The notes under the pieces: model-generated
What the model was told of the DNA's origin: nothing
The model's input: only the letters and a program-made list of their open reading frames with translations
Database searches by the model: none
In this document: piece after piece, positions 92 through 20,581 of the stretch
How positions within the stretch are numbered: the stretch's first letter is position 1
Layout of the letters: every line of letters begins with the position of its first letter
Translations under genes and position numbers: made by a program
IMG/VR virus record: IMGVR_UViG_3300031976_000907
Span: 7,351-71,350 of that record
DNA length: 64,000 nucleotides
Reading direction: 5' to 3' (one strand)
From: a virus

Positions 92-1072
92 ATGGCGACA
101 TTTAGAAAAAGAGGATTACGTTGGTTTGCTGAGGTGAAGCTTAATGGTGTGCGTAGGGGTAAAACCTTTGACACTAAAGCTCAAGCAAAGAACTGGGCTG
201 CTGCCGAGGAAACTCGGATTAACAGCTTAGGGGCTGGTGTAAGCCAAACACATACACTGGGTGATGTGATGGAGCGTTACTTAAGTGAAGTGTCTCCGAC
301 AAAGCGAGGAGCTAAGTGGGAGAGTAATAGAATTATTGCTTACCTTCGCCATGAGATCTCTACAGTAAAGTTAATGGATCTGAAGCGAGAGCACTTTGAA
401 GATTTAATCGAAGAACGTCTCAAGTCTGTTAAGCCAAGTACAGTTAACCGTGATCTGAATCTCATCAGTAACTGTCTGACGTATGCACGTCGTTGGAGGT
501 TAATGGATCACAATCCATTTGATGACTTGAAGCGTCCAACCGATCCTAAGCACCGTGAGCGTCTTATCTCTGTTGAAGAAATCGAAGAGATATTAATTAG
601 CTTGGGTTACGTAGAAGGGGTTAAGCCAACTCTAAAACAGCATTATGCAGGATATGCATTTTTGTTTGCGATAGAGACAGCGATGCGTTTAGGTGAATTA
701 ACTGGCTTACGTCCTGAAGATGTCAATCTTACAAAGCGTGTAGCGCACTTACCATTAACTAAGAACGGCTCGGCTCGCTCCGTTCCACTCAGCTCCCGTG
801 CCGTTCAGCTATTAACTATGTTAAAGCCGTGGGAGCATGAGACTATCTTTCAGATGTCTTCAGAACAATGTGGTGCGTTGTTTCGTAAGGGGTTAGTGAG
901 AACCAGGATAGAAGATTTAACGTTTCACGATACTCGCCATGAAGCGATTACTCGTTTAGCACGTAAGGTAGAAGTATTAGATTTGGCTCGAATAGTGGGC
1001 CATAAAGACATCAAGATGTTGATGCGGTATTACAACCGAACAGCTGAGGATATTGCTGCTCAGTTGGATTAA
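92..1072 (+). CDS. int: Tyrosine recombinase/integrase (HP1/P2/Rci-like family)
   Basis: Catalytic residues R (TAMRLGEL), K (TKNG), HxxR (FHDTRH), H (VGHKD), Y (MRYYN); N-terminal arm-binding-like MATFRKRG..W; ATG 92 follows GGAG. Confidence 0.95.
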   Translation: MATFRKRGLRWFAEVKLNGVRRGKTFDTKAQAKNWAAAEETRINSLGAGVSQTHTLGDVMERYLSEVSPTKRGAKWESNRIIAYLRHEISTVKLMDLKREHFEDLIEERLKSVKPSTVNRDLNLISNCLTYARRWRLMDHNPFDDLKRPTDPKHRERLISVEEIEEILISLGYVEGVKPTLKQHYAGYAFLFAIETAMRLGELTGLRPEDVNLTKRVAHLPLTKNGSARSVPLSSRAVQLLTMLKPWEHETIFQMSSEQCGALFRKGLVRTRIEDLTFHDTRHEAITRLARKVEVLDLARIVGHKDIKMLMRYYNRTAEDIAAQLD

Positions 1073-1329
1073 TGTTTTACAGCCCACTTAATAACGTCCT
1101 GAGCACGCCACAGAGCGTTGCTACGCTGTCCTCTACCGTTTGGTAGGCGTATGGCTTGGGGAAAGCTTTCTTGCTTGCTAGTGTGGTCTCTGAACGTTGT
1201 AGGTGATTGGCGTAAGTAAAGTGCGCAATCCTTACCGTTCCAAAGAGTTGTTTCATCTGGATGGCTCACCGCCAACCGCTGCGCTATGGCGTTCGCCAAT
1301 AGATCATAATCAATTGATAAATCAGTCAT
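1069..1329 (-). CDS. Excisionase / AlpA-like recombination directionality factor
   Basis: Small winged-HTH with FPQAIRL...LWRAQDVIKW signature; convergent with int, stop codons share TTAA 1069-1072; ATG 1329 with GGAG RBS. Confidence 0.75.
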   Translation of the reverse strand: MTDLSIDYDLLANAIAQRLAVSHPDETTLWNGKDCALYLRQSPTTFRDHTSKQESFPQAIRLPNGRGQRSNALWRAQDVIKWAVKH

Positions 1330-1370
1330 TGTGTTCTCCAAAGGTAGTGCCTCTGTGCGAGGCACAAGCC

Positions 1371-1553
1371 TTAGTGAGTAGTTGAAGTTTCGTCTTCCAT
1401 TTGGGAGACATCAACGTACCAAGAGGTGCCAATTTTTTGAGCATTTGGTAACAGTCCGTTGTTTGCCCACCGTCTTACTGTTGCCGGTGAGGGCGGAGTC
1501 ACAAAATACTCTTTTCGCCACTCTTCAAGTGCCATCAGTTTAGGGTGATTCAT
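1371..1553 (-). CDS. Lambda Xis-like excisionase/HTH protein
   Basis: LEEW...PSPATVRRWANNG.L...KIG.SW resembles lambda Xis (LQEW...SLETVRRW...KDG). Confidence 0.7.
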   Translation of the reverse strand: MNHPKLMALEEWRKEYFVTPPSPATVRRWANNGLLPNAQKIGTSWYVDVSQMEDETSTTH

Positions 1554-1564
1554 GATTATTCAGC

Positions 1565-1906
1565 TTATTTTAGTAAGCTGCCTTTGTTAGTGGTTTTAGT
1601 CTCTTTAGACCAATGAACACCAATCATGTTGCCAAGCAGTTTGGTAAACCAAGATGGTGCTTTATTTTGTGTAACCTCACCTTTGAATACGGTTTCAGTT
1701 TCCGTAATAGGTGCAGGTAAAGGAGGTGGTGTACGTACAGCAGTGCCACGAACATATTTTTCGTTAAAACACTTTTTGTAAATTGCAGAGCGAGTGCGGT
1801 TAAACACTTTTTCTAGCTCATAGATTGATACGCCAGCGGCGTACATATCTTTAAGCAGTTTTAATTCTTTGCGTGACCAAGCACGACGTTTGATTTGTGT
1901 AGTCAT
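1565..1906 (-). CDS. HTH (Myb/GcrA-like N-terminus) protein
   Basis: RRAWSRKELKLLKDMYAAGVSIYELEKVFNRTRSAI pattern. Confidence 0.55.
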   Translation of the reverse strand: MTTQIKRRAWSRKELKLLKDMYAAGVSIYELEKVFNRTRSAIYKKCFNEKYVRGTAVRTPPPLPAPITETETVFKGEVTQNKAPSWFTKLLGNMIGVHWSKETKTTNKGSLLK

Positions 1907-1929
1907 AGTTTCTCCAAGAGTAAATATCC

Positions 1930-1950
1930 AAAAACCACCGGATGGTGGTT
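1930..1950 (-). terminator. Rho-independent terminator
   Basis: AACCACC/GGTGGTT stem with U-tract on the minus strand. Confidence 0.55.
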
Positions 1951-2095
1951 ATTTATAATGTTTACTTTGTAATTTATTTAGGGTGTTATAATCCTACTTT
2001 AGCGCTCATTTTAAACCTTCATCACCCTTCTCTCGCCATAATGTGCAGTAATCTGCTCACTAGCTTTGTTTTTTAGAGCTAATGAGCAGATATAG

Positions 2096-2734
2096 TTACA
2101 TCAACAGATCAGTAATGATGGCTTTTACTTGCTTAGCAATTTCGATGTGCTCAGCCTGTGTACCATTACCTTCACGTACATCAATGTAGTGAAGCCATGA
2201 ACGCAGTGTGCCTGCCATATACATGCGTGAGCGCGTATTGCCTTCAGGCAGTACAGCGCGAGCTTGTTCTTTAGCAATGCCATTTTGAAGTGCCCACTGG
2301 TACGCTGTTTCAGCGGCAGTAATGACACTGTCTTGACGGCGATCCCAAGCGTTTTGTAGATCCTGGTCTTTAACTGCAATTGAGTTCTGACGGTTCTTTT
2401 GATCCTGTAGGCGAGCTTCACGTAGATCAAAGCCTAGCTTTTCTGTAATGGGATCAGCGTAGCGTTGTGAGAACTCTTGGAAACTAAAGCTGCGATGGCG
2501 CAGTATCTGACGAGCGATGTCACGAGTTGTATTGATCTCCATAGTAAGAGAGACCATTTCAAACGGTGACCAGTGCTTTTCACGCATGAGATAGTTAAAC
2601 AACTTCTCAGCTGTATCAGTGTTGTCTTGGTTCTTTGGGTTTGAGACACGTGCGCAAAAAACCACCAACTCTTTAAGAGTGGTGGCTTCTGGGATACACG
2701 GCTCACTTTTACAAACAAGTGAAACAGTGTTCAT
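2096..2734 (-). CDS. thyX: Flavin-dependent thymidylate synthase
   Basis: ThyX motif RHRSFSFQEFSQRY, plus HWSPFE and AREQAR-like KEQARAVLP. Confidence 0.95.
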   Translation of the reverse strand: MNTVSLVCKSEPCIPEATTLKELVVFCARVSNPKNQDNTDTAEKLFNYLMREKHWSPFEMVSLTMEINTTRDIARQILRHRSFSFQEFSQRYADPITEKLGFDLREARLQDQKNRQNSIAVKDQDLQNAWDRRQDSVITAAETAYQWALQNGIAKEQARAVLPEGNTRSRMYMAGTLRSWLHYIDVREGNGTQAEHIEIAKQVKAIITDLLM

Positions 2735-2745
2735 TAAAGTTCCTT

Positions 2746-3903
2746 TTAAATTTGGCTTATATTGACTGTGTGGCGTTCGACTTCACCGTACTCGATGTGA
2801 ACCACGAGGGCTTTGGTGTCTTGTCCCGCTCTCCATCCACCGCTGTAGGCATAATTGTCTTTGGCGGCAAGGGTTCGAAAGCTCTCCACGGTACATCCCC
2901 CGTACTCTTTGCGAGAGTCGTGGTGAATGTGTCCCGTTAACCAATAACGATTGGCACAATCTCCCCAGTCAGTTGCTCTATCGGTAGCCATGACGAGAGG
3001 GAGTTTGTCAGCTTTGGCTTGGTGCCCGTGATGCACTCCAAAGAAATTATTTCCAAATCGGAAATATTGGAACGCGTCGTTTTTACAATGAATAACGACT
3101 CGAGGTTCGTTTTCGTACATGTGTTTCAGTGCAACCATTAAGAACATTGATGAAACATCATCGTGATTACCAATAGCGGTAATAACTTCGACGTGTTCAT
3201 GGTGTTCAAGTGCTGACTTAATCATGCGACGCATAATCTTTACACCTACATCGACCATGCTGAGATAGTCTTTGTCAGTATCAAGATGATGCCCGTTGCG
3301 GCTAGTAACGCCTGCTACGTTGTCGTAGTGGAAGTAGTCACCTAAGTTACAAATGACTGCACGTTTACAGCTAGGAGTGGTTTTAACAATGCGATCAAAC
3401 GCATTGAGAAAGACTTTTTCTGCAATCTCCAAGTCCCAATCGGTGCCTGAGATTTCTTTAAGCGCTGACATACCAATGTGTGGATCACCTAGTGGGTAGA
3501 TCGCCATTAGATTGTGATCAGCATAACCTGTGTAGGCTGAAGGCTCTAGCTGAGGCAACTCAGCAACGAGCGCTTCAGACATGTCACTCATAAGACGCGC
3601 TTGAGCTTCTTTAGCAACATCCGTTTTAACCCACTGACTTTTGACGTTACCGTCTTCGTCGTAAAGGGTAGAGACGCCTTTAACAATGTGAGATTTAGGT
3701 GCTGTGTGCGTCATGTCGTGCTCAGGTGCATAGCCCTGAATAGCTGCACGATCTTTCATGCGTTTTACAGCTTTACGAATATTTCGTTCTGATACACCTA
3801 ATGCTGTAGCAGCCGCTTTTTGCGTCTGATGTTCAACAAGGGCATCCAATACTTCGTGTTGTCGAATAGTTTCGGCGTACTCACGGTACTGTTCGTAGTT
3901 CAT
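2746..3903 (-). CDS. Calcineurin-like metallophosphoesterase with N-terminal HTH
   Basis: GDPH, LGDYFH, GNHD, HHGH and GHIHH motifs; N-terminal QKAAATALGVSERNIRK HTH. Confidence 0.8.
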   Translation of the reverse strand: MNYEQYREYAETIRQHEVLDALVEHQTQKAAATALGVSERNIRKAVKRMKDRAAIQGYAPEHDMTHTAPKSHIVKGVSTLYDEDGNVKSQWVKTDVAKEAQARLMSDMSEALVAELPQLEPSAYTGYADHNLMAIYPLGDPHIGMSALKEISGTDWDLEIAEKVFLNAFDRIVKTTPSCKRAVICNLGDYFHYDNVAGVTSRNGHHLDTDKDYLSMVDVGVKIMRRMIKSALEHHEHVEVITAIGNHDDVSSMFLMVALKHMYENEPRVVIHCKNDAFQYFRFGNNFFGVHHGHQAKADKLPLVMATDRATDWGDCANRYWLTGHIHHDSRKEYGGCTVESFRTLAAKDNYAYSGGWRAGQDTKALVVHIEYGEVERHTVNISQI

Positions 3904-3947
3904 GCTGACTCCAAGTTAATTGGTGTCGGCTTTGGTTCTTCTCAGGT

Positions 3948-4364
3948 TTATGCGCACTTATTAGCAGGTTTGCACATAGGGATCTCTTCAAGGAGAGCCG
4001 CTTGTGCTTTGAGCGCTTTGTTTTCAGTTTTAAGGTTTGCAATCTCTTCTTGCAGGATTTCAGTAATCACTGCCTGGTTAAGAGATTGCTGAGTTACTGG
4101 ACGTTGAAAGTTCTCAGGGATCGCTTCTAGATCTTCTAGAAGACGGTTGAGATACACGTTATCGTCGTCAGTTCCTTCAAGCAGGGAGGTGATGCGTTCA
4201 AGATAGATGCGAGTTACTTCAAACACTTCAATGGCGTTCTCAAAAGAACGTAAGACTTCTGGAGAGTAGTCTGAACCAATGTCAGTGTGTGAGCGGTAGA
4301 TCTCGCCATCAAGTTCTTCACCTAGTAGCTGAAGTTTGAGACGGATATCAGTTAGTGTGTCCAT
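3948..4364 (-). CDS. Hypothetical protein with C-terminal coiled coil
   Basis: ORF in the minus-strand operon; likely start MDTLTD at 4364. Confidence 0.6.
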   Translation of the reverse strand: MDTLTDIRLKLQLLGEELDGEIYRSHTDIGSDYSPEVLRSFENAIEVFEVTRIYLERITSLLEGTDDDNVYLNRLLEDLEAIPENFQRPVTQQSLNQAVITEILQEEIANLKTENKALKAQAALLEEIPMCKPANKCA

Positions 4365-4848
4365 GATTAAATTCCGCTTTACGTTCGATGTACTCGTCAA
4401 TGGGAACCAAGACAAACCGAGGTTGTTGACGGTACGTTATTAAAAGTTTTTCATCTTGCGTGGCATCTTCTGTGATCTCTCTGCCAAGCTCGCTGGTTGA
4501 GACTTCACGAATGTTCAGTCCAAGGCGAGGTACAGAGCGAATGTTGTGCTCACGCATTTTGAGATAAACAATGCAGGTACTAAGACCCAGCACGTTTGCA
4601 ATTTCTTCTGCGCTGTAACAGTTCTCCCAGAGAACGGTAATGTCGCTGATTAATTTGCTATTTCTCATTTCTGATCCTGATGGAAAGCCCCAACGTGCCC
4701 TACGACACCAGATTGTGTCTTTGGTTACGCCAAAGTGGTGGGCAATTTTAGAGTCCGACCAGCCTTGCTTGATCATGCTAAGCACGTCGTCACGGTCGGT
4801 ATCGAAAGGGGGTTTGTATAAAACCTTGTTCGGGCTTGTACGGGACAT
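4348..4848 (-). CDS. Tandem-HTH protein with C-terminal Phd/YefM-like domain
   Basis: Two HTHs (SDSKIAHHFGVTKDTI; SAEEIANVLGLSTCIV) then EVSTSEL...LLITYRQQPRFVLVPIDEY. Confidence 0.6.
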   Translation of the reverse strand: MSRTSPNKVLYKPPFDTDRDDVLSMIKQGWSDSKIAHHFGVTKDTIWCRRARWGFPSGSEMRNSKLISDITVLWENCYSAEEIANVLGLSTCIVYLKMREHNIRSVPRLGLNIREVSTSELGREITEDATQDEKLLITYRQQPRFVLVPIDEYIERKAEFNHGHTN

Positions 4849-4863
4849 TCAGATTCCTGCGTA

Positions 4864-5163
4864 TTAGTGATTGCTAAGTTGTTCTAGCATCAGCTCGTAC
4901 GCAAGAAGGAATCGTTCCTCGTCGCTTTCAGACATCAGTTTAGTAAGGGATTCGCTGTAGAGTTGGGTAACTGGATCCAGCAGTACACATTCAAATTCTG
5001 TGTAACTGGAATCCGCCTCTCTCCATGAAAACGATTGCTGCGTTGCGTAGTGCACAACAGCGACAATACATTTTCGCGCTTTAACAGTTCCTTCAAACGT
5101 GTCTCGATACTCACTGAGTAGATTGACAGGCTTACAAGGTTGTTGGTTCATCATGGTTGTCAT
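4864..5163 (-). CDS. Hypothetical protein
   Basis: 99-aa ORF packed in the operon. Confidence 0.55.
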   Translation of the reverse strand: MTTMMNQQPCKPVNLLSEYRDTFEGTVKARKCIVAVVHYATQQSFSWREADSSYTEFECVLLDPVTQLYSESLTKLMSESDEERFLLAYELMLEQLSNH

Positions 5164-10794: not shown

Positions 10795-11940
10795 TTATAT
10801 TGGATATTCGATTTGGCTGCCAAAGGGTTCTTGCCACTGCACATCAGATTTACGAGAGTGCAATGCCCATATAACTGGCTTCTGAGGATCTTTTAGATGT
10901 TCTGTACCAAAGTATCCATCCGTGAAAATGATGGATATGTCTGGTTTACGTTGATCCAGAATTTCACACACTTCGGTTAAGTCTGTTCCTCCGCCACCTT
11001 TAAACTCAAAAGTAAGCAGTTCCTGAGCGGATTCGATTTCGACGATTTGATGTACGACGTAATCAAAGTCAATCAGCGTAAGCTTCTTTGGATTAAGGCG
11101 GGCAGCAATTTCATAGGTTTCTGATAGAAACGCCTGAAGTTGCTCATTACTAATGGATCCACTGGTATCAACGGCTATTACAATCTCGTCTAGTGACTCT
11201 GAGTAAAGCGTTGGTAAGTAGAAGTCAGGTAGAAAACGGCGGTTTACTTTTCGCAGGCTGTAATCATCGGGCGATGTCGCTTTTAAAAAGTTTTCGAGTA
11301 TCACGCCCCAAGGGAGTTTGGGATGTAATATGTCATCGATCCAGCGCTTTATCTCTTTAGGGATAGCGCCAGGATCATCAGATGTCATTTCTGCGCGAAC
11401 AGACGCTCGAATAATGATGTCTTTAATTTGCTCAGAGACGTCTTGAGACGTTTCACCTGCAGCATCGTTATTGGTTTCATCCGGTTCTTGTAAGTCAGGT
11501 ACAAAATCTGGATGTTCAGCATTTTGATCTGGATCTTGTTCAAGAGCTTCATACACTTCCTCCGATGACATTTCATCGTAGTTATAATCGAGTAGACCAC
11601 CTTCAGGCATTTTTAAGCCTTGCTTATCAAGGATCAGGTTAATGACGTAGTCACACGCCATGTTCCATAAACGGAAGTCACGTTCGTTAACGCGTAGCAT
11701 GTGCTCGAAAGCAACATGCCATGCTTCATGTAGCAGCAGAAAGATCTGCTCGTCTTTAGTGAGTGATTCCCAGAACTCTGGGTTGATTATGATATGTGTT
11801 CCATTGGTCGCAGCCGTCGGTACACTGTCACTCCACGAGAAGCGTAGAGAAAACAGTATGGTTGAGATGAACGTACTGTTCGCTTGGATCAGTACATTCA
11901 TTTTGGCTCGTTCAAGTGATTTCTCTAGCTCAGTATTCAT
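10795..11940 (-). CDS. Metallopeptidase plus vWA domain protein (DUF2201-like, N4 gp25-like)
   Basis: LLHEAWH (HExxH), MIDAS DTSGS, GGGTD, FTDG. Confidence 0.88.
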   Translation of the reverse strand: MNTELEKSLERAKMNVLIQANSTFISTILFSLRFSWSDSVPTAATNGTHIIINPEFWESLTKDEQIFLLLHEAWHVAFEHMLRVNERDFRLWNMACDYVINLILDKQGLKMPEGGLLDYNYDEMSSEEVYEALEQDPDQNAEHPDFVPDLQEPDETNNDAAGETSQDVSEQIKDIIIRASVRAEMTSDDPGAIPKEIKRWIDDILHPKLPWGVILENFLKATSPDDYSLRKVNRRFLPDFYLPTLYSESLDEIVIAVDTSGSISNEQLQAFLSETYEIAARLNPKKLTLIDFDYVVHQIVEIESAQELLTFEFKGGGGTDLTEVCEILDQRKPDISIIFTDGYFGTEHLKDPQKPVIWALHSRKSDVQWQEPFGSQIEYPI

Positions 11941-14843: not shown

Positions 14844-16040
14844 TTAACTCAATGCGTAATTGCTGTTAGCAATATACGTGGAGAGATTTGGTTCAAATTT
14901 GTTGATATGAACGTGGTAGCCACGTACTTGTGAGAGCAGATCAGAGAGTAATTCACTGTCAGCCAGTTCACAGAACATGTCACGGTACGTTTCACGCAGT
15001 CTTTGCATATTGTTAGGGTGGCATTTGAATTCATCATGTACACACACAACAGGGAAGGGCTTATGCGTTAGACACTTTTCAATCATTGCTTTTAAGCGAA
15101 TGAGCGTACTAAAGCTGTAAGCCACTAGGTTGGTATGATTGATCTCATCGACAAGCTTTAAGCTTACGAATTCAGACGTATCGACAACTGCAATCTCAAT
15201 ATCTTGTAGATACTCATCCAGTAGCTCGTGAACACGAGTCAATTGGGCTGGATTGTAGTTACAGCGACGATTCATCTCACGCACTAACATACCGTCAATT
15301 GAGTGGACAATGTTAGCGGCGATCGACAAGCCTGATTCAGTGCCTACGTTCTCATAGAAGCGGTGAGTGAACGTCATGTGATCGAGTTCATCGATCTCTA
15401 CTTTCACATCGACTGCGTCCATTACCTTACATTTGGCTTCAAAGCCATCAGGTAGAACCCATTCATGGCTCAATTCGAACGGTTGCCAAGATTCAAGCAG
15501 TTTATCCATGACATCGACTGCACCAGGAGCGATAGTCGCTTGTGCCTGGTAGAAGCATTCCAGTTCTACAGTATCTTCACCAAAGATCTCTTTTGGCTTC
15601 GCATTAGAGCCATAGAAGTGAGTCATTAGAGCTTGTTTAACGTCTTTACGTGCTGGCGCTACAGATACGCCATGCTGTTTAAGCAAGTCGTTCATTACAG
15701 CAGTGCAATGCGTGTAGATATCAGCACGAGTGGTAGGATCAATCAGTCCTGTATTGGTACATGTCTCTGGATCACCAATGAGCGTACCCATTATTTGTAA
15801 TCCGCTACTGCAAGCGTCCAGACCCACCATGTGTCCGGTTGGTTGTCCATTTTGAGCAGCACGAAGTGCCATCACACCGGCTAGAAACAGTGGAGCGTCA
15901 TCTGCTTTATCAATGAGTCCTTCTAGCTCATCAATGTGGGTATCAACCCAAGCAATACGGGCTTCAAACAGCTCTTTGTCCATACCAAAGGCGTTCGCAA
16001 TATCAATCTTGATGTATTCGAATCCAGTAAATGTTTGCAT
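14844..16040 (-). CDS. N4-like RNA polymerase II subunit 2 (gp16-like)
   Basis: MQTFTGFEYIKIDIAN start; LDACSSGLQ, RKDVKQALMTHFYG, ANIVHSIDG, VHDEF. Confidence 0.95.
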   Translation of the reverse strand: MQTFTGFEYIKIDIANAFGMDKELFEARIAWVDTHIDELEGLIDKADDAPLFLAGVMALRAAQNGQPTGHMVGLDACSSGLQIMGTLIGDPETCTNTGLIDPTTRADIYTHCTAVMNDLLKQHGVSVAPARKDVKQALMTHFYGSNAKPKEIFGEDTVELECFYQAQATIAPGAVDVMDKLLESWQPFELSHEWVLPDGFEAKCKVMDAVDVKVEIDELDHMTFTHRFYENVGTESGLSIAANIVHSIDGMLVREMNRRCNYNPAQLTRVHELLDEYLQDIEIAVVDTSEFVSLKLVDEINHTNLVAYSFSTLIRLKAMIEKCLTHKPFPVVCVHDEFKCHPNNMQRLRETYRDMFCELADSELLSDLLSQVRGYHVHINKFEPNLSTYIANSNYALS

Positions 16041-16054
16041 AGGTTTCTCCTCAC

Positions 16055-16074
16055 AAAAGGGCACGGAGGTGCCC
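16055..16074 (-). terminator. Terminator-like hairpin upstream of RNAP2
   Basis: GGGCAC/GTGCCC stem with short U-tract. Confidence 0.5.
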
Positions 16075-16092
16075 CTTGATTGTCCGGTTTAG

Positions 16093-16284
16093 TTATTCCA
16101 TGAAATGGTTGGTTTGTTTGCGTAGCGCAACGATTTCTTGATCGATTTGGGCGATCTTTCGCTTATCTTGGTAGTAAGCTTGCCCATCTGCGTAAGGCAG
16201 TACCTCTAAGATGCTTTTTCTCTGTTTTTCCAGACTGGAAATCTTGTTTGAGAGTTCAGTCAGTACTGCTTGGTAATTACTCAT
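16093..16284 (-). CDS. Small coiled-coil hypothetical protein
   Basis: 63 aa, ATGA overlap with the upstream gene. Confidence 0.55.
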   Translation of the reverse strand: MSNYQAVLTELSNKISSLEKQRKSILEVLPYADGQAYYQDKRKIAQIDQEIVALRKQTNHFME

Positions 16285-16472
16285 GCTTTGTTCTCCGTCG
16301 TTAATTCACGCAGTAGATGTTCATTGCCATCAGCATCGTAGTACTGAACGCACAATTGCTGGTTCCAATACAGTTCTTGCAGATATACAAAGACTGTTTT
16401 GTCACTCACAATGTCGCCTTCATCGAACTCCAGTTCGACAACGGCTCGAATATATTGTTTGGCTTGTTTCAT
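16281..16472 (-). CDS. Hypothetical protein
   Basis: 63 aa, GAGGGTGT-ATG start. Confidence 0.55.
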   Translation of the reverse strand: MKQAKQYIRAVVELEFDEGDIVSDKTVFVYLQELYWNQQLCVQYYDADGNEHLLRELTTENKA

Positions 16473-16660
16473 ACACCCTCTTCGTCGTCTTCAATCTCTA
16501 TTAATTTAGGTTTTGATAAGTTATTGATGGATGCACCTCGATAAGCACTAGAAGCCGCTTCGTACATCCGTAACAACTCATCATCAGCAACGGTAAGTGC
16601 ATGCCGTGGTGAATCAGCTTCCACAAACATCATTAGGTTTACTCGATAGATTTTCTTCAT
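16469..16660 (-). CDS. Hypothetical protein
   Basis: 63 aa, GGAGGGTGT-ATG start. Confidence 0.55.
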   Translation of the reverse strand: MKKIYRVNLMMFVEADSPRHALTVADDELLRMYEAASSAYRGASINNLSKPKLIEIEDDEEGV

Positions 16661-16668
16661 ACACCCTC

Positions 16669-17109
16669 CTACTTAATGGCAGTAAGGATTTTGTCGAGCT
16701 TGCCTGACTTTTCTAGCTCAGCCAGAGAAGACATTGCAGCTTCGGCACGCTCTAATAGAGCAACCATGCGTTCAAGACGCTCAAAGTTGGCAGTCTTTTC
16801 AATGCGCTGCACTCCATCTGAGATCCTTTGATAGGCGTCACGGACTTTGCCTGATACTTGCTTTACAGATTCAGTAATGGCTTTTTCTGATTGAGTGACG
16901 TCATCTGTACGTTGACGAATCACTTCTAAGTATTTATCTAGTTGCTCTGTTGCGTTGTTTAGATCATTGCTCATTTTTTTCACCCGTTTGGTTAAGTAGT
17001 TGCCAGCTTTGTCATCGTTTAGCATCGAAACGATAGCTTTAGTCACTGTTGTTTCTGCGAACAACGGTTCACCGCGTTCGATCTTCTCTATGCCGTTGTA
17101 TTCGTACAT
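16669..17109 (-). CDS. Coiled-coil hypothetical protein
   Basis: 146 aa helical heptads; GGAGGGTGT-ATG start. Confidence 0.6.
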   Translation of the reverse strand: MYEYNGIEKIERGEPLFAETTVTKAIVSMLNDDKAGNYLTKRVKKMSNDLNNATEQLDKYLEVIRQRTDDVTQSEKAITESVKQVSGKVRDAYQRISDGVQRIEKTANFERLERMVALLERAEAAMSSLAELEKSGKLDKILTAIK

Positions 17110-18002
17110 ACACCCTCCACTAGCTCTGGTTCAGCAAACTGAATCATCGCTTTTCTAAATGAATTACCTTGAGTGCTCACGTGATAGCCCTGAGCGTAGG
17201 TGCGACCACGTTTATCAACGCGGTGCGTTAGGTAAAACTCGTTACCTTGTTGGATTAGCTCCTTGTAGACTCGGTATGAGTCATTCACAAACTTCATCCA
17301 CTGCTCACGTTGCTTACCATCTTTGAAATCACGCTTAGGCGTCTCTGAAAGGGTAGTCAGCAACTCAACATTCAAGGTAAGCGGTACTTGATTGAACTTA
17401 TTGATACTGTCGAGGCAAATTTCACCTGTATGGAAGTTACCTTTACCCAGAATCATGCTTTCACGCTTGGTGAGATAGCCTGAGTCGTAATTACTGCGCA
17501 CTTTGTTAGGTGGACAGATCATTGGAGGAAGGTATTGAGCCTGCATCATGTAACGACGCAGTTCTTCAGACAGATCGTAGTTCGATACAATGTAAAGCGA
17601 GGCAAACTTATCCTCTTTGATAATGTCCCAGACATCTGCTTCACACAGTACAGCAAGTAGTTCACCCGCCATCTTTGCACCGTCACCTTTATCCGTCATA
17701 CCAATGACAGAGGCGACTTCACCTACAACAGAGGTGTAAAGCTCAGGTACTCTCTTTGGCACAACAACGTAGAAGATGTCATACACTAGCTCCAGCAAAT
17801 CTGTCTTACGCTCAACAAACTCAGCTATGCGCTGGTTCTTTGAGTCGTAATAGCTTTGGCTTACGTAATCTTGGATTAGATTGACGCACTCCAATGCCGA
17901 AGCGTGAAGCTCTGGGCACTCTGATATCTCCTGAATCAGTTTCTTCTTCACAGCACGTTTGCTGTACATGTTCTCGATCTCGCGTTGGTTCTCTATGTGC
18001 AT
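17088..18002 (-). CDS. N4-like RNA polymerase II subunit 1 (gp15-like)
   Basis: YLPPMICPP, SGYLT, THRVDKRGRTYAQGYHVSTQG (DxRGRxY). Confidence 0.93.
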   Translation of the reverse strand: MHIENQREIENMYSKRAVKKKLIQEISECPELHASALECVNLIQDYVSQSYYDSKNQRIAEFVERKTDLLELVYDIFYVVVPKRVPELYTSVVGEVASVIGMTDKGDGAKMAGELLAVLCEADVWDIIKEDKFASLYIVSNYDLSEELRRYMMQAQYLPPMICPPNKVRSNYDSGYLTKRESMILGKGNFHTGEICLDSINKFNQVPLTLNVELLTTLSETPKRDFKDGKQREQWMKFVNDSYRVYKELIQQGNEFYLTHRVDKRGRTYAQGYHVSTQGNSFRKAMIQFAEPELVEGVCTNTTA

Positions 18003-18111
18003 TGCGCCATTCCTCTCTTAGAAACTGTTCTTCTTGCAGTTCAATACGACCCCATTCGGCGTCTTCCCACTGCTCAATCAATGAATAAGGCATCTGTCTG
18101 TGCTCCAAAAC

Positions 18112-18134
18112 AAAAGGGAGCCGAAGCTCCCTTT
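18112..18134 (-). terminator. Terminator of early unit 3 (UUCG loop)
   Basis: AAAGGGAGC-TTCG-GCTCCCTTTT on the minus strand just after the 18140 stop. Confidence 0.7.
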
Positions 18135-18139
18135 ATGGT

Positions 18140-18406
18140 TTATGCGAATGCCAGCTTAGGCGCTTCACTCTCTTCGTTAAGAAGATTAAGACTGACTTCG
18201 AACTTAGCGTTCTCAATCTGGTCAGCGTGCTCAACTAAGAAACGCTGGGTTTCACCAATACGACCACGTTTGTCACCGTACAGCGGAATACCACCAACCT
18301 GACGAGAACCGTCAGAAAGAACTACGTTCACGTTCAAGTAACCTACAACCTCAGAACGCTCTGAAGTGATAGAAGAAAGCTGTGCAGAAGGTTTACGAAT
18401 AGCCAT
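18140..18406 (-). CDS. N4 gp2/Drc-like ssDNA-binding RNAPII cofactor
   Basis: GYLNV...GGIPL motif, size and early position; ATG 18406 with GGAG RBS. Confidence 0.65.
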   Translation of the reverse strand: MAIRKPSAQLSSITSERSEVVGYLNVNVVLSDGSRQVGGIPLYGDKRGRIGETQRFLVEHADQIENAKFEVSLNLLNEESEAPKLAFA

Positions 18407-18444
18407 GAGAATATCTCCGATAGTTAGAATAATTTGGGACGAAC

Positions 18445-18465
18445 CCACACCTGCGCGACAGCGCA
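18445..18465 (-). promoter_or_regulatory. Candidate vRNAP hairpin promoter P3 (template is the + strand)
   Basis: CC ACACC TGCGC GACA GCGCA; same motif at 19122 and 19549. Confidence 0.7.
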
Positions 18466-18601
18466 TTGCTTATAATTAAATCGAATTGATTGATCGAGAA
18501 AGGATCACTAAACTGCGGCGTTAGCTGCACCACCAGTGTTATGTTTAGTGAGTAGTGTTGTGTATGGTAGAACCCCTGTGTTCTACCGTATGTATATAGT
18601 T

Positions 18602-18621
18602 AAAAAGCTCCCGAAGGAGCT
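18602..18621 (-). terminator. Terminator of early unit 2
   Basis: AGCTCC-TTCG-GGAGCTTTTT on the minus strand. Confidence 0.75.
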
Positions 18622-18635
18622 AATTAATATATCGG

Positions 18636-18728
18636 TTAGGACCATGTAGATAGTTCTAACAATATAGCGATAGTCCACACACCAAGGGTGAAGATGGTCA
18701 GTGGAAGCATTCGGTAGTTACCCATCAT
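18636..18728 (-). CDS. 30-aa hydrophobic early peptide (not in ORF track)
   Basis: MMGNYRMLPLTIFTLGVWTIAILLELSTWS; AAGGAG RBS; ends just before the terminator. Confidence 0.55.
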   Translation of the reverse strand: MMGNYRMLPLTIFTLGVWTIAILLELSTWS

Positions 18729-18739
18729 AATGAGACTCC

Positions 18740-18958
18740 TTAAGCAGCTGTTTGGTAGGCTTTAGACCATTGTTCATGAAGCTGGTCATAACGATACTCT
18801 TCGTTAGAACCCCCGTAGTTATCCATCTCGTAGTTAAGGCACTCGATATCGAGCATGATCTGCATTTGCTCATACGTATTAGGATCGTATGCGTCATAAT
18901 GCTCACTGAGATGGAGATCGTTGTACATGTCTAAGATATGCGCTGGGTAATCACACAT
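18740..18958 (-). CDS. Acidic early protein
   Basis: MCDYPAH... start with GGAGGA RBS, overlapping the upstream stop. Confidence 0.6.
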   Translation of the reverse strand: MCDYPAHILDMYNDLHLSEHYDAYDPNTYEQMQIMLDIECLNYEMDNYGGSNEEYRYDQLHEQWSKAYQTAA

Positions 18959-19100
18959 TGTATAGATCCTCCCACTCGATAGAGTCACGGCTAAGTACCG
19001 TATCGATGTCGATGTTAATTAGTTCATCGTAATTAGAGACTTTAAATTCAATTGAATTTTCATCAATGAATTCAGGTAATTGAACAGTTAATTCAAGCAT
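18951..19100 (-). CDS. 49-aa acidic early protein (not in ORF track)
   Basis: MLELTVQLPEFIDENSIEFKVSNYDELINIDIDTVLSRDSIEWEDLYNV; GGAGGA RBS. Confidence 0.65.
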   Translation of the reverse strand: MLELTVQLPEFIDENSIEFKVSNYDELINIDIDTVLSRDSIEWEDLYNV

Positions 19101-19121
19101 GGTAATTCCTCCGATTAGTTA

Positions 19122-19141
19122 CCTCACCTGAGCGACAGCTC
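19122..19141 (-). promoter_or_regulatory. Candidate vRNAP hairpin promoter P2
   Basis: CC TCACCT GAGC GACA GCTC. Confidence 0.7.
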
Positions 19142-19192
19142 TCTTACTTATTAGAATGATCTATCTCTGATTGGTTGTGTTGTGTGAGCTTT

Positions 19193-19212
19193 AAACCCAC
19201 CGAAGGTGGGTT
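19193..19212 (-). terminator. Terminator of early unit 1
   Basis: AACCCACC/GGTGGGTT stem at the stop of the 19211-19303 peptide; short U-tract. Confidence 0.6.
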
Positions 19213-19303
19213 AGATGTAGCCTAGCGTTGCTGCTACTACAAGGGTAATGCCTGTGATGAGAGTGAGGACGTATGGTACGTCCTCCAGGAGAAGCTTAGT
19301 CAT
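19211..19303 (-). CDS. 30-aa single-TM early peptide (not in ORF track)
   Basis: MTKLLLEDVPYVLTLITGITLVVAATLGYI; AAGGAG RBS; overlaps the upstream stop. Confidence 0.55.
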   Translation of the reverse strand: MTKLLLEDVPYVLTLITGITLVVAATLGYI

Positions 19304-19508
19304 CAAGACCAAGCTCCTTTGATAGATCGATGAGACGCTTACGAGTGCGTAGCTCATGCTCTTGATTCTCAGCACCTGCTTCACGCTCTACGATAGAGAC
19401 GCCGTGATCAGTGGCTATTACCAATTTCTCTGTGGTATCCACAGCAAGATTGAAAAGGTTTAGAAGCTTAAGAGTAGAAGACCAGAAAGCTGATAGTACT
19501 TCACGCAT
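19296..19508 (-). CDS. First early gene (N4 gp1 position)
   Basis: 70 aa, GGAGGA RBS, directly after P1. Confidence 0.65.
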   Translation of the reverse strand: MREVLSAFWSSTLKLLNLFNLAVDTTEKLVIATDHGVSIVEREAGAENQEHELRTRKRLIDLSKELGLDD

Positions 19509-19548
19509 TGTTAATTCCTCCGAGGTTTGAATGCATTCGGCGAGATCG

Positions 19549-19567
19549 CCATACCTAAGCGACAGCT
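19549..19567 (-). promoter_or_regulatory. Candidate vRNAP hairpin promoter P1
   Basis: CC ATACCT AAGC GACA GCT (shortest stem of the three). Confidence 0.62.
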
Positions 19568-19873
19568 AACGGTGGGTAGGGTAGTTGGAAATATTTCCAG
19601 ATAAACGTATAGGGGGGGTAGTTCACCTGAAGTTGCTCTAAACACTACAGTAATGAACTCATCCTAATTTTTTAAAATCTGTAAAAAGTTGGTGTATAAA
19701 TTTTGCACAAAAAAAATCCCCGAACTTTCGAACGGGGATAATCAACCATGAGAGTGAACCTACAAATATGTAAGCCAACGAGAGTTATATTACGTTGTGA
19801 TCTAATAAAAACAATATTTATTTATATCGGTGCACTGGTATATTAAGCGCATTACTTTGTTATTGGTTTTATT

Positions 19874-20581
19874 ATGTCTGACTTTACTGTCGATCAAATT
19901 CAAGCAGCCCTTCCTCCTTCTGTTAAAAAATCTGTGAATCAAGAAGTTATAGATAATATAAATGCCTTGGTTCAAGATCCTGAGATGCGTGAAATATATC
20001 GTGAGAACTTAGTTTCTTATGTTCATGTATTACAGAACGGTAAGTTTAAATTAACTAATTATTTAGACGCTGTGCGTTATGTTAGTTATAAATTGATGGG
20101 TGATACTAATATTGGGGCTTATACAAAAGCGTTCCCCGATAAAATACAGAGATTTGAGAAGCAGGGTGTAGCGAGTAAAGATATTGCGAGTTATGTCAGT
20201 GCTTATAATAAATCTAAGTTGGTTAATTTAATTTATGAGCAAACACTGGTTCCTTCTTGGGTATTAAACCAAGACTTATATCAGAAGGCGCTTAATGTGC
20301 AGGCAGAGTTAATGCTGACAGCTAAGAGTGAGAAGGTGCGCAGTGATGCTGCTAACTCGCTGCTGACGCAGCTCAAGCAGCCTGAGACACAGAAGGTGCA
20401 GTTGGATGTAGGTATTAAAGAGGACAAGACCATTGATGCTCTTAGAGCTTCTACGATGGAGCTAGTGGCACAGCAAAGGGCTATGTTACAGAGTGGTGCT
20501 ATGCATGCCCAAGAGGTTGCTCATACGAAGTTAGTTGTTGATGCCGAGTATGAGGATGTAAGTGATGCCAGTGGTTCTTGA
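19874..20581 (+). CDS. N4 gp69-like protein (putative terminase small subunit)
   Basis: YLDAVRYVSYKLMG...AYNKSKLVNLIYEQ...KSEKVRSDAANSLL; upstream of terL. Confidence 0.8.
   Translation: MSDFTVDQIQAALPPSVKKSVNQEVIDNINALVQDPEMREIYRENLVSYVHVLQNGKFKLTNYLDAVRYVSYKLMGDTNIGAYTKAFPDKIQRFEKQGVASKDIASYVSAYNKSKLVNLIYEQTLVPSWVLNQDLYQKALNVQAELMLTAKSEKVRSDAANSLLTQLKQPETQKVQLDVGIKEDKTIDALRASTMELVAQQRAMLQSGAMHAQEVAHTKLVVDAEYEDVSDASGS

Follow-up and report, generated by a model that had tools for sequence, protein, structure and literature searches.

Bacteriophage N4 provides the textbook example of a polymerase that recognizes its promoter as a DNA hairpin, and in the solved complexes a loop base is flipped out and stacked on a tryptophan. 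The N4 early promoters P1–P3, which are read by the virion RNA polymerase (vRNAP) (Glucksmann 1992 and Gleghorn 2008, as summarized in PMC4496689), are template-strand hairpins in which a GC-rich heptamer is centered at −11 relative to a start at +1, with a 3-nt loop, a sheared −10G:−12A pair and variable outer stem pairs (PMC4496689). For phage LUZ7, ONT-cappable-seq revealed nine early starts, located 13–14 nt from a hairpin center, and among these are two strong starts 33 nt apart before the gene for Drc (gp14) (PMC9163698). The early promoters of N4-like phages are described with 3-nt loops (PMC4496689, PMC3715699, PMC9163698, PMC6027278, PMC13492108), and no vRNAP early promoter with a 4-nt loop was found in the literature covered, which left aside the supplementary hairpin tables of PMC3715699 and PMC6027278 that could hold one. 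Here we analyze three hairpins with a GACA tetraloop in a 64,000-nt stretch of DNA (the window; bases 7351–71350 of the 71,350-bp IMG/VR virus record IMGVR_UViG_3300031976_000907, which ends with assembly-type terminal repeats), and we consider it likely that they are the vRNAP early promoters of an N4-like phage.

Three GACA hairpins upstream of the RNAPII genes

The source genome, with a 3354-aa vRNAP and a split RNAPII, is that of an N4-like phage (Schitoviridae), although no close cultured phage was found, the top RNAP1 identity among 50,697 phage records being 41%. Residues 1039–1613 of the vRNAP align with N4 residues 1131–1703 (phmmer against the solved N4 vRNAP), and its polymerase domain covers approximately residues 915–2010, or about 56.2–59.5 kb of the window. 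This is the enzyme that we propose to be packaged in the virion and to read the hairpins; promoters of the N4 type are bound and transcribed by such an enzyme on DNA that is single-stranded, or supercoiled with SSB present.

The first-pass annotation, made from the sequence alone, had listed three related sequences at 18445, 19122, and 19549, and these were confirmed letter for letter on the + strand, the one from which the minus-strand open reading frames (ORFs) are transcribed (Table 1). All three lie within 1.1 kb and share the build CC-N2-ACCT-N2-GCGACAGC. The pattern CCNNACCTNNGCGACAGC matches three times in the window with up to two mismatches allowed and three times in the whole 71,350-bp genome at no more than one mismatch, with no match for the reversed control. 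In each copy exactly 10 nt separate the CC from the loop, as the annotation had stated, and the loop is the 4-nt GACA of the octamer core GCGACAGC, with G as its first base, A as its last and a closing C-G pair; the GC-rich heptamer GCGNAGC, whose 3-nt loop has a central purine (−11), is not matched. The stems of copies 1, 2, and 3 contain five, four, and three perfect pairs, and at one stem position the pair as a whole differs, being C-G in copy 1 and A-T in the other two, which is the compensatory change claimed before. The outermost stem position of copy 3 is an A·A mismatch, and the sequence flanking the motif differs among the copies. Mechanically called ORFs at 18140–18466 and 19511–19645 overlap two of the sites; the starts backed by a Shine-Dalgarno sequence for these two are 18406 and 19508, and with them the earlier placement of all sites between genes, here minus-strand ORFs, holds. 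The loops start 51, 34, and 53 nt ahead of ATG codons at 18406, 19100, and 19508, each of which has GGAG upstream.

The sequence GC-G-N-N-A-GC of the mini-hairpin DNA d(GCGNNAGC) is present in all three copies. The d(GCGNNAGC)/d(GCGNAGC) mini-hairpins of Hirao and colleagues form a structural class of DNA and not a functional family, and both the window octamer and that of one relative, GCGCAAGC, are measured variants of it. Melting temperatures of 76.5 °C are given for d(GCGAAGC) and d(GCGAAAGC) and of 72.0 °C for both d(GCGACAGC) and d(GCGCAAGC) (PMC13037366, Table 1), which agrees with the first-pass statement that GC-GNNA-GC forms a stable DNA mini-hairpin, and the sheared G:A pair is known from nuclear magnetic resonance of related octamers (PMC13037366). 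The same source gives the N4 core GCGGAGC as a natural mini-hairpin and, in the part covered, names no natural tetraloop promoter. The published stability of the octamer would explain how stems of 3–5 pairs could extrude and persist.

A hairpin search of the N4 record recovered CC-AA-AAGAAGC[GGA]GCTTCTT at 566, CC-AA-AAGCTGC[GGA]GCAGCTT at 4555, and, at the left end, CC-ATAA-GTTGC[GAA]GCAAC (108–90), with 9 nt between the CC and the loop in each. From their order and the contacts given in the review, we read these as P2, P3, and P1, respectively. The annotation had described all three N4 promoters as CC-AAAA followed by a GNA triloop; this is accurate for two of them, whereas the leftmost has CC-ATAA and the loop GAA. 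The window sites resemble those of N4 in being three template-strand sites near the left end of a genome with a giant vRNAP gene, placed ahead of early genes that include RNAPII. They resemble them also in the invariant GC closing pairs, the G and A at the loop ends (the sheared pair), the 5′ CC as the presumed start, and, apparently, outer stem positions that vary with complementarity as their sole constraint, one A·A mismatch aside. They differ in the size and sequence of the loop (the 4-nt GACA as opposed to the 3-nt GGA and GAA), in the core (GCGACAGC as opposed to GCGNAGC), in the distance from CC to loop (10 as opposed to 9 nt), in the spacer (N-N-ACCT as opposed to AAAA/ATAA), in stem length (3–5 as opposed to 5–7 bp), and in being putative promoters known from sequence alone.

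Applied to LUZ7, the search returned three C[GTA]G hairpins, one at 798 and a pair at 3670 and 3702, which stands before ORF14 with a separation of 32 nt. This pair matches the mapped starts and has its CC at the mapped distance from the hairpin center; the search therefore recovers known promoters, and the CC marks the start. In LUZ7, as in other relatives, 10–11 nt lie between the CC and the loop. If it is also the start in the window, the start-to-center distance is 12.5–13.5 nt, compared with the 13–14 nt of LUZ7, whose early promoters likewise have a G start, have stems of at least 4 bp and include its own promoter(s) directly before the Drc gene, just as one of the window sites precedes an 88-aa gene that is probably Drc-like. 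LUZ7 differs in its conserved 3-nt loops (GTA in the copies found) and in having nine starts as opposed to three window sites. Given the fixed CC, and given that the mapped LUZ7 starts are 13–14 nt from the hairpin center, where the CC lies, we infer that RNA would start opposite C18446, C19123, and C19550 and run leftward, beginning with GG. The further suggestions of the annotation, that the vRNAP reads the ACCT spacer and has a specificity orthogonal to that of N4, are possibilities only; with respect to ACCT, the spacers of L125 and L133 are different (see below).

A scan of 15800–20000 found no sigma-70-like promoter on the minus (coding) strand, and sigma-70-like matches are depleted there, with one (on the + strand) compared with a mean of 8.3 (S.D. 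2.8) in shuffled sequences. Nor did the hairpin search detect a repeated GCGNAGC triloop hairpin in the gaps of the early region. Before RNAPII exists, its genes must depend on some other transcribing activity.

Hairpin loops in uncultured relatives and cultured phages

Searches anchored on RNAP1 yielded 12 loci from IMG/VR and 33 from metagenomes, several of which are the same contigs, and 20 distinct uncultured loci were classed by the repeated template-strand hairpins upstream of RNAP1; shorter contigs gave no clear hairpin sets. Half of the 20 carry G-N-A triloops: GGA in L124 (five copies), L127 (three), L128 (five), L150, and L152; GAA in L126 (four); GCA in L129 and L131 (four in the latter); and GTA in L130 (five) and L136 (three). 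Three carry tetraloops (L123, L125, and L133), one is mixed (L122/L134, with GGCC[GGTA]GGCC, TGGCC[GCTA]GGCCA, and ATGTCC[GTA]GGACAT), one has GC[TAT]GC (L157), and five were assigned to no class, four of these having less than 2.7 kb of upstream sequence. Among 13 cultured phages sampled, repeated G-N-A triloops occur in 10 (N4, LUZ7, TEMp-D1, pYD6-A, Vibrio 1.026.O and 1.097.O, JA-1, VBP32, Alteromonas A5, and K477), GC[TAT]GC occurs in SABI, and D285 and 1.224.A could not be classed; a repeated tetraloop was found in none of the 13. With triloops in 10 of 13 cultured and 10 of 20 uncultured genomes, the tetraloop appears as a variant within a known kind of promoter.

In L124, two more GC[GGA]GC hairpins with 6–7-bp stems are present at 11329 and 11484, about 4.4 kb downstream of the RNAP1 start and outside the early cluster, and these may be extra promoters. 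SABI (L175, an Enterobacter phage; positions 485–5001) and L157 (970–5972) each have four to five template-strand GC[TAT]GC hairpins upstream of RNAP1, with long stems such as AACGCGC[TAT]GCGCGTT and a loop that is not G-N-A; they may represent another promoter class or another element.

The closest relative is L123, whose RNAP1 is 62% identical to that of the window and is its sister in the tree (Shimodaira–Hasegawa-like approximate likelihood ratio test (SH-aLRT), 99). It has three C[GCCA]G hairpins on the template strand, 438, 1244, and 1585 nt before RNAP1, where the window has its sites at 455, 1132, and 1559 nt. They stand 61, 38, and 54 nt ahead of ATG ORFs with GGAG, and the innermost precedes an 81-aa orthologue of the 88-aa protein encoded behind the innermost window site. 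In L125, with an RNAP1 only 43% identical, four template-strand copies of the octamer GCGACAGC itself lie in a 2.6-kb stretch of the early region, of six in the whole genome (73,935 bp). Its outer stems differ yet compensate (GGC/GCC, TGGC/GCCA, and CGC/GCG), so relatives too have 3-bp stems, and its spacer is ATTG-N-T-N-T and not ACCT despite the identical octamer. L133 has four copies of GC[GCAA]GC, each with the CC 10 nt from the loop, and spacers (CCCT, TCCT, and TCCC) that appear similar to the ACCT of the window. In L122, the GGCC[GGTA]GGCC and TGGCC[GCTA]GGCCA hairpins have the CC 10 nt away and lie 47 and 36 nt ahead of ATG ORFs. The three L122 sites (2892, 3446, and 4935) mix the loops GGTA, GTA, and GCTA in similar CC-closed hairpins, all with the CC at 10 nt and all 36–51 nt ahead of ATG ORFs, a mixture that points to a single polymerase accepting loops of either 3 or 4 nt. 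The same hairpin build thus recurs at RNAP1 identities of only 38–62%. Within each tetraloop genome the loop is uniform, and it differs between genomes, a pattern that would follow from a need for each loop to fit the polymerase encoded by the same genome.

The first-pass annotation had proposed motif discovery in related genomes, and the hairpin build was indeed found there. Allowing three mismatches, the full motif is not enriched in L121, L122, or L123, and therefore the build is common to these phages and the exact sequence is not. Across a viral-contig collection, the full motif and GCGACAGC-N(0–14)-GGTGGG gave at least 237 loci, which are chance matches only, and among the matches listed, no octamer had a run of at least seven G in the next 80 nt.

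The build was also modeled without the window. Covariance model R1 was made from 13 tetraloop sites of L133, L125, L123, and L122, with 24 ungapped columns, a 4-bp stem, and no window site. When both strands of the window (128 kb) were scanned with filters off, the three window sites were the top three of nine hits (18445, 22.7 bits; 19122, 21.1 bits; 19549, 16.4 bits), the next scoring 12.9 bits. On 10 other loci, R1 found no more tetraloop sets, giving three hits, all with E > 0.2.

These results bear on whether the three copies are a chance likeness, or a recent local duplication without function. In favor of such a view, there are only three copies and a single covarying stem position, and a crude count of hairpins cannot separate the sites from shuffled sequence. 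Because the search pattern was derived from the sites themselves, the region was tested for three-copy motifs without it. The best ungapped three-copy motif in 15000–19900 has 14 of 18 columns identical, a value that none of 40 dinucleotide shuffles reached (maximum 13). The hairpin motif scores 14 of 18; the triple output by the script is an unrelated ribosome-site/ATG motif that ties with it at the same score. That other motif, GAGGGTGTATGA, is a ribosome site plus ATG with three copies at 16463, 16651, and 17100 (+), read on the minus strand, at the start regions of ORFs 16281–16472, 16469–16660, and 16669–17109. Further points against such a view are the differing flanks, the recurrence of the build in diverged relatives, and the ranking of the window sites under a model that had not seen them. 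We regard both chance and functionless duplication as barely credible.

The probable left genome end and possible other roles for the hairpins

Gene direction is leftward to the left of about 19.5 kb and rightward to the right of 19.87 kb, and the intervening gap is therefore taken to be the assembly junction of a linear genome's two ends. Just outside hairpin 3, the template strand carries a box and a poly-G run (Table 1). The left end of N4 has the box GGTGGGGTAGG (74–64) and a G9 run (40–32) beyond its outermost hairpin, and the order of hairpin, GGTGGG(G)TAGG-type box, and poly-G is the same in the window, N4, L133, L125, and L131. A template-strand run of 6–10 G just past the outermost hairpin is present in the window and in 12 of the relatives compared, and its distance to the physical left end is 32–40 nt in N4 and about 29–35 nt in LUZ7. 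We suggest that the box and the G run mark the left genome end across N4-like phages. By this shared order, the hairpin at 19549 corresponds in position to the leftmost N4 hairpin. About 30 nt past the G run, the sequence ACTACAGTAATGAA is common to the window and L123, and the true left end of the genome is probably near 19650–19660. The gap between the genome ends also contains, at 19709–19738, a hairpin TCCCCG...CGGGGA that has about eight consecutive T after it on the minus strand and is probably a terminator. It is covered by a sub-threshold Rfam match to NsiR1 at 19709–19765 (25.4 bits compared with a gathering score of 39); Rfam gave no match at the three GACA hairpins.

Hairpins of a related form have a different reader in LUZ7, where the middle promoters used by RNAPII are GC-rich hairpins with stems of at least 6 bp and loops of 3–4 nt, the G start being about 15 bp downstream (PMC9163698). 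The window sites, GC-rich with a 4-nt loop and a G start, could on this basis be RNAPII middle promoters, the vRNAP promoters being something else that has not yet been seen. The LUZ7 promoters, however, belong to the middle region, where RNAPII reads them together with Drc. In the window, the stems have 3–5 bp and not 6 or more, and the sites come before the genes for RNAPII itself, at the far left end and beside landmarks like those that flank the first N4 early-promoter hairpin. No further copy is present in the replication gene region, and the only other repeated motif upstream of RNAPII is the ribosome-site/ATG repeat. Taken together, these points leave the RNAPII explanation very improbable.

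The stable mini-hairpin might also serve other cis-acting purposes, as an operator, a pause or attenuation signal in a 5′ leader, or a recombination or replication signal. Mini-hairpin sequences are found also at priming and replication origins (PMC13037366), and the terminator scan picked up copy 1 as resembling a + strand terminator. The sites do not, however, lie in the path of any + strand gene. Their strand, their fixed CC, and their distance of 34–53 nt to an ATG match the promoters of N4, LUZ7, and the 10 triloop relatives, and these gaps must in any case hold some promoter. We give a cis-acting role of this type only a small chance.

Several observations weigh against the assignment of the three hairpins as vRNAP promoters or do nothing to strengthen it. 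With nearest-neighbor energies for single-stranded DNA, the drawn structures of copies 1 and 2 were reproduced (−6.0 and −3.3 kcal/mol), whereas that of copy 3, with its 3-bp stem, is not the predicted minimum-energy fold. A count of hairpins with a common closing pair and loop was tried as a statistic and rejected as powerless, since 91 of 100 shuffles reach three; the statistical case thus depends on the 18-nt motif and the relatives. The R1 training alignment is 96% paired by construction, because the relatives' sites were chosen for being hairpins, and this pairing carries no independent weight. The phage is known from a metagenome only, and the LUZ7 middle promoters show that GC-rich hairpins with 3–4-nt loops can belong to RNAPII. 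In a quick maximum-likelihood tree of RNAP1 (31 rows), which is a proxy from which a vRNAP tree could differ, L125 and L133 fall away from the window and L123, among triloop users. The tetraloop label requires three changes on this tree, at least two of them imposed by branches with good support, and shows no significant clustering (67 of 500 shuffles are as low). Finally, we aligned the polymerase domain of the window vRNAP with those of N4, LUZ7, and three relatives, having checked the offset of 997 in N4 numbering. The N4 residues that read the loop and stem (Lys-114, Arg-119, Trp-129, Asp-901, and Arg-904) could not be aligned to the window vRNAP or even to that of LUZ7. For the −11 recognition element, the intercalating hairpin, and the specificity loop, there was no alignment even between the triloop users N4 and LUZ7, and the vRNAP protein therefore gives no support either way.

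On balance, the promoter function put forward by the first-pass annotation is likely, with good comparative support from the place and build of the sites, from the relatives, and from the out-of-sample model.

Early units, proposed mechanism, and implications

The early region downstream of the hairpins divides into three short units (Table 1). The annotation had assigned each site to a promoter-genes-terminator unit, and this stands for the second and third, which end in scanned terminators; the stem-loop that closes the first was not flagged by the scan, because its T tail is weak. PHROGs returned no family for the four small early ORFs tested, which included the 70-aa ORF, the 88-aa ORF, and two of unit 2. 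The 88-aa protein matches its L123 orthologue (81 aa) with a BLASTP E value of 5e-16, and a three-sequence profile aligned with LUZ7 ORF14 in hhalign with a probability of 87.5% and an E value of 3.6e-6 over the N-terminal 54 columns. Orthologues of the gene directly precede RNAP1 in L123 and L122. The 88-aa protein, whose gene has a candidate hairpin promoter and a strong terminator of its own, is likely a homologue of LUZ7 Drc, a single-stranded DNA-binding cofactor of RNAPII.

Table 1. Positions, in window coordinates, of the GACA hairpins, the left-end landmarks, and the genes discussed
Feature	Position	Strand	Details
Hairpin 1, nearest RNAPII	18445–18465	+	CC-ACACCT-GCGC-GACA-GCGC; CC 18445–18446; spacer ACACC; stem TGCGC 18452–18456 / GCGCA 18461–18465; loop GACA 18457–18460
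Hairpin 2, middle	19122–19141	+	CC-TCACCT-GAGC-GACA-GCTC; CC 19122–19123; spacer TCACCT; stem GAGC 19130–19133 / GCTC 19138–19141; loop GACA 19134–19137
Hairpin 3, outermost	19549–19567	+	CC-ATACCT-AAGC-GACA-GCT; CC 19549–19550; spacer ATACCTA; stem AGC 19558–19560 / GCT 19565–19567; loop GACA 19561–19564
Left-end landmarks (template strand)	19571–19618	+	GGTGGGTAGGG box 19571–19581; G7 run 19612–19618
First early unit	19211–19508	−	ORF 19296–19508 (70 aa) and small overlapping ORF at about 19211–19303
Stem-loop, terminator-like end of unit 1	19194–19212	−	AACCCACC-TTC-GGTGGGTT, then TTTAAAG
Second early unit	18636–19100	−	ORFs 18951–19100 (49 aa), 18740–18961 (73 aa), and 18636–18728 (30 aa)
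Intrinsic terminator, end of unit 2	18606–18621	−	AGCTCC-TTCG-GGAGCT, then TTTTT; terminator scan
Third early unit, 88-aa protein gene	18140–18406	−	Likely Drc-like
Intrinsic terminator after the 88-aa gene	18113–18134	−	9-bp stem; terminator scan
RNAPII small subunit (N4 RNAP1-like)	17088–18002	−	PHROG 2166, E 8.5e-96
RNAPII large subunit	14844–16064	−	PHROG 2051, E 1.3e-146
vRNAP, 3354 aa	53443–63507	+	phmmer against N4 vRNAP chains, E 4.9e-63

If the hairpins are vRNAP promoters, early transcription could proceed as follows. After injection, supercoiling would extrude the mini-hairpins, of which the template-strand form, with the G...A loop, would be the stable one. The injected vRNAP would then bind the extruded template strand at the stem and its GC-closed loop. 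Each site would present two invariant G-C pairs and a GACA loop whose first G and last A are able to form a sheared pair, with one to three more variable stem pairs and a pyrimidine-rich 5′ spacer, N-N-A-C-C-T. Synthesis would begin (GG...) opposite the CC, whose distance of 10 nt from the loop exceeds that in N4 by one base, and would produce three short units, from 19508 to 19194–19212, from 19100 to 18606–18621, and from 18406 to 18113–18134. The innermost unit would yield the Drc-like protein, and read-through would reach the RNAPII genes.

What is new here is a natural class of hairpins with a 4-nt loop, present in at least four uncultured genomes, that lacks the 3-nt-loop heptamer of the described N4-type family. 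The existence of such a class would mean that the N4 structures understate the plasticity of the loop pocket, and the tetraloop sites offer concrete sequences with which to ask how loop size and spacing set the start site. If each loop has its own polymerase domain, these small and very stable single-stranded DNA promoters would be useful as orthogonal systems for in vitro transcription. The survey method, which combines an RNAP1 anchor, template-strand hairpins, and the poly-G landmark, also serves, in metagenomic assemblies that are permuted, to locate the early promoters and the physical left end. We further propose, tentatively and as something possible rather than probable, that the Schitoviruses have switched more than once between 3- and 4-base loops, each time together with the vRNAP, such that the enzymes of tetraloop phages (GACA, GCCA, and GCAA) no longer use G-N-A loops and vice versa. 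If so, these phages would contain a natural set of mutually orthogonal single-stranded DNA promoter/polymerase pairs, and the stacking of a single flipped −11 base in the N4 pocket would not be a fixed property of the family.

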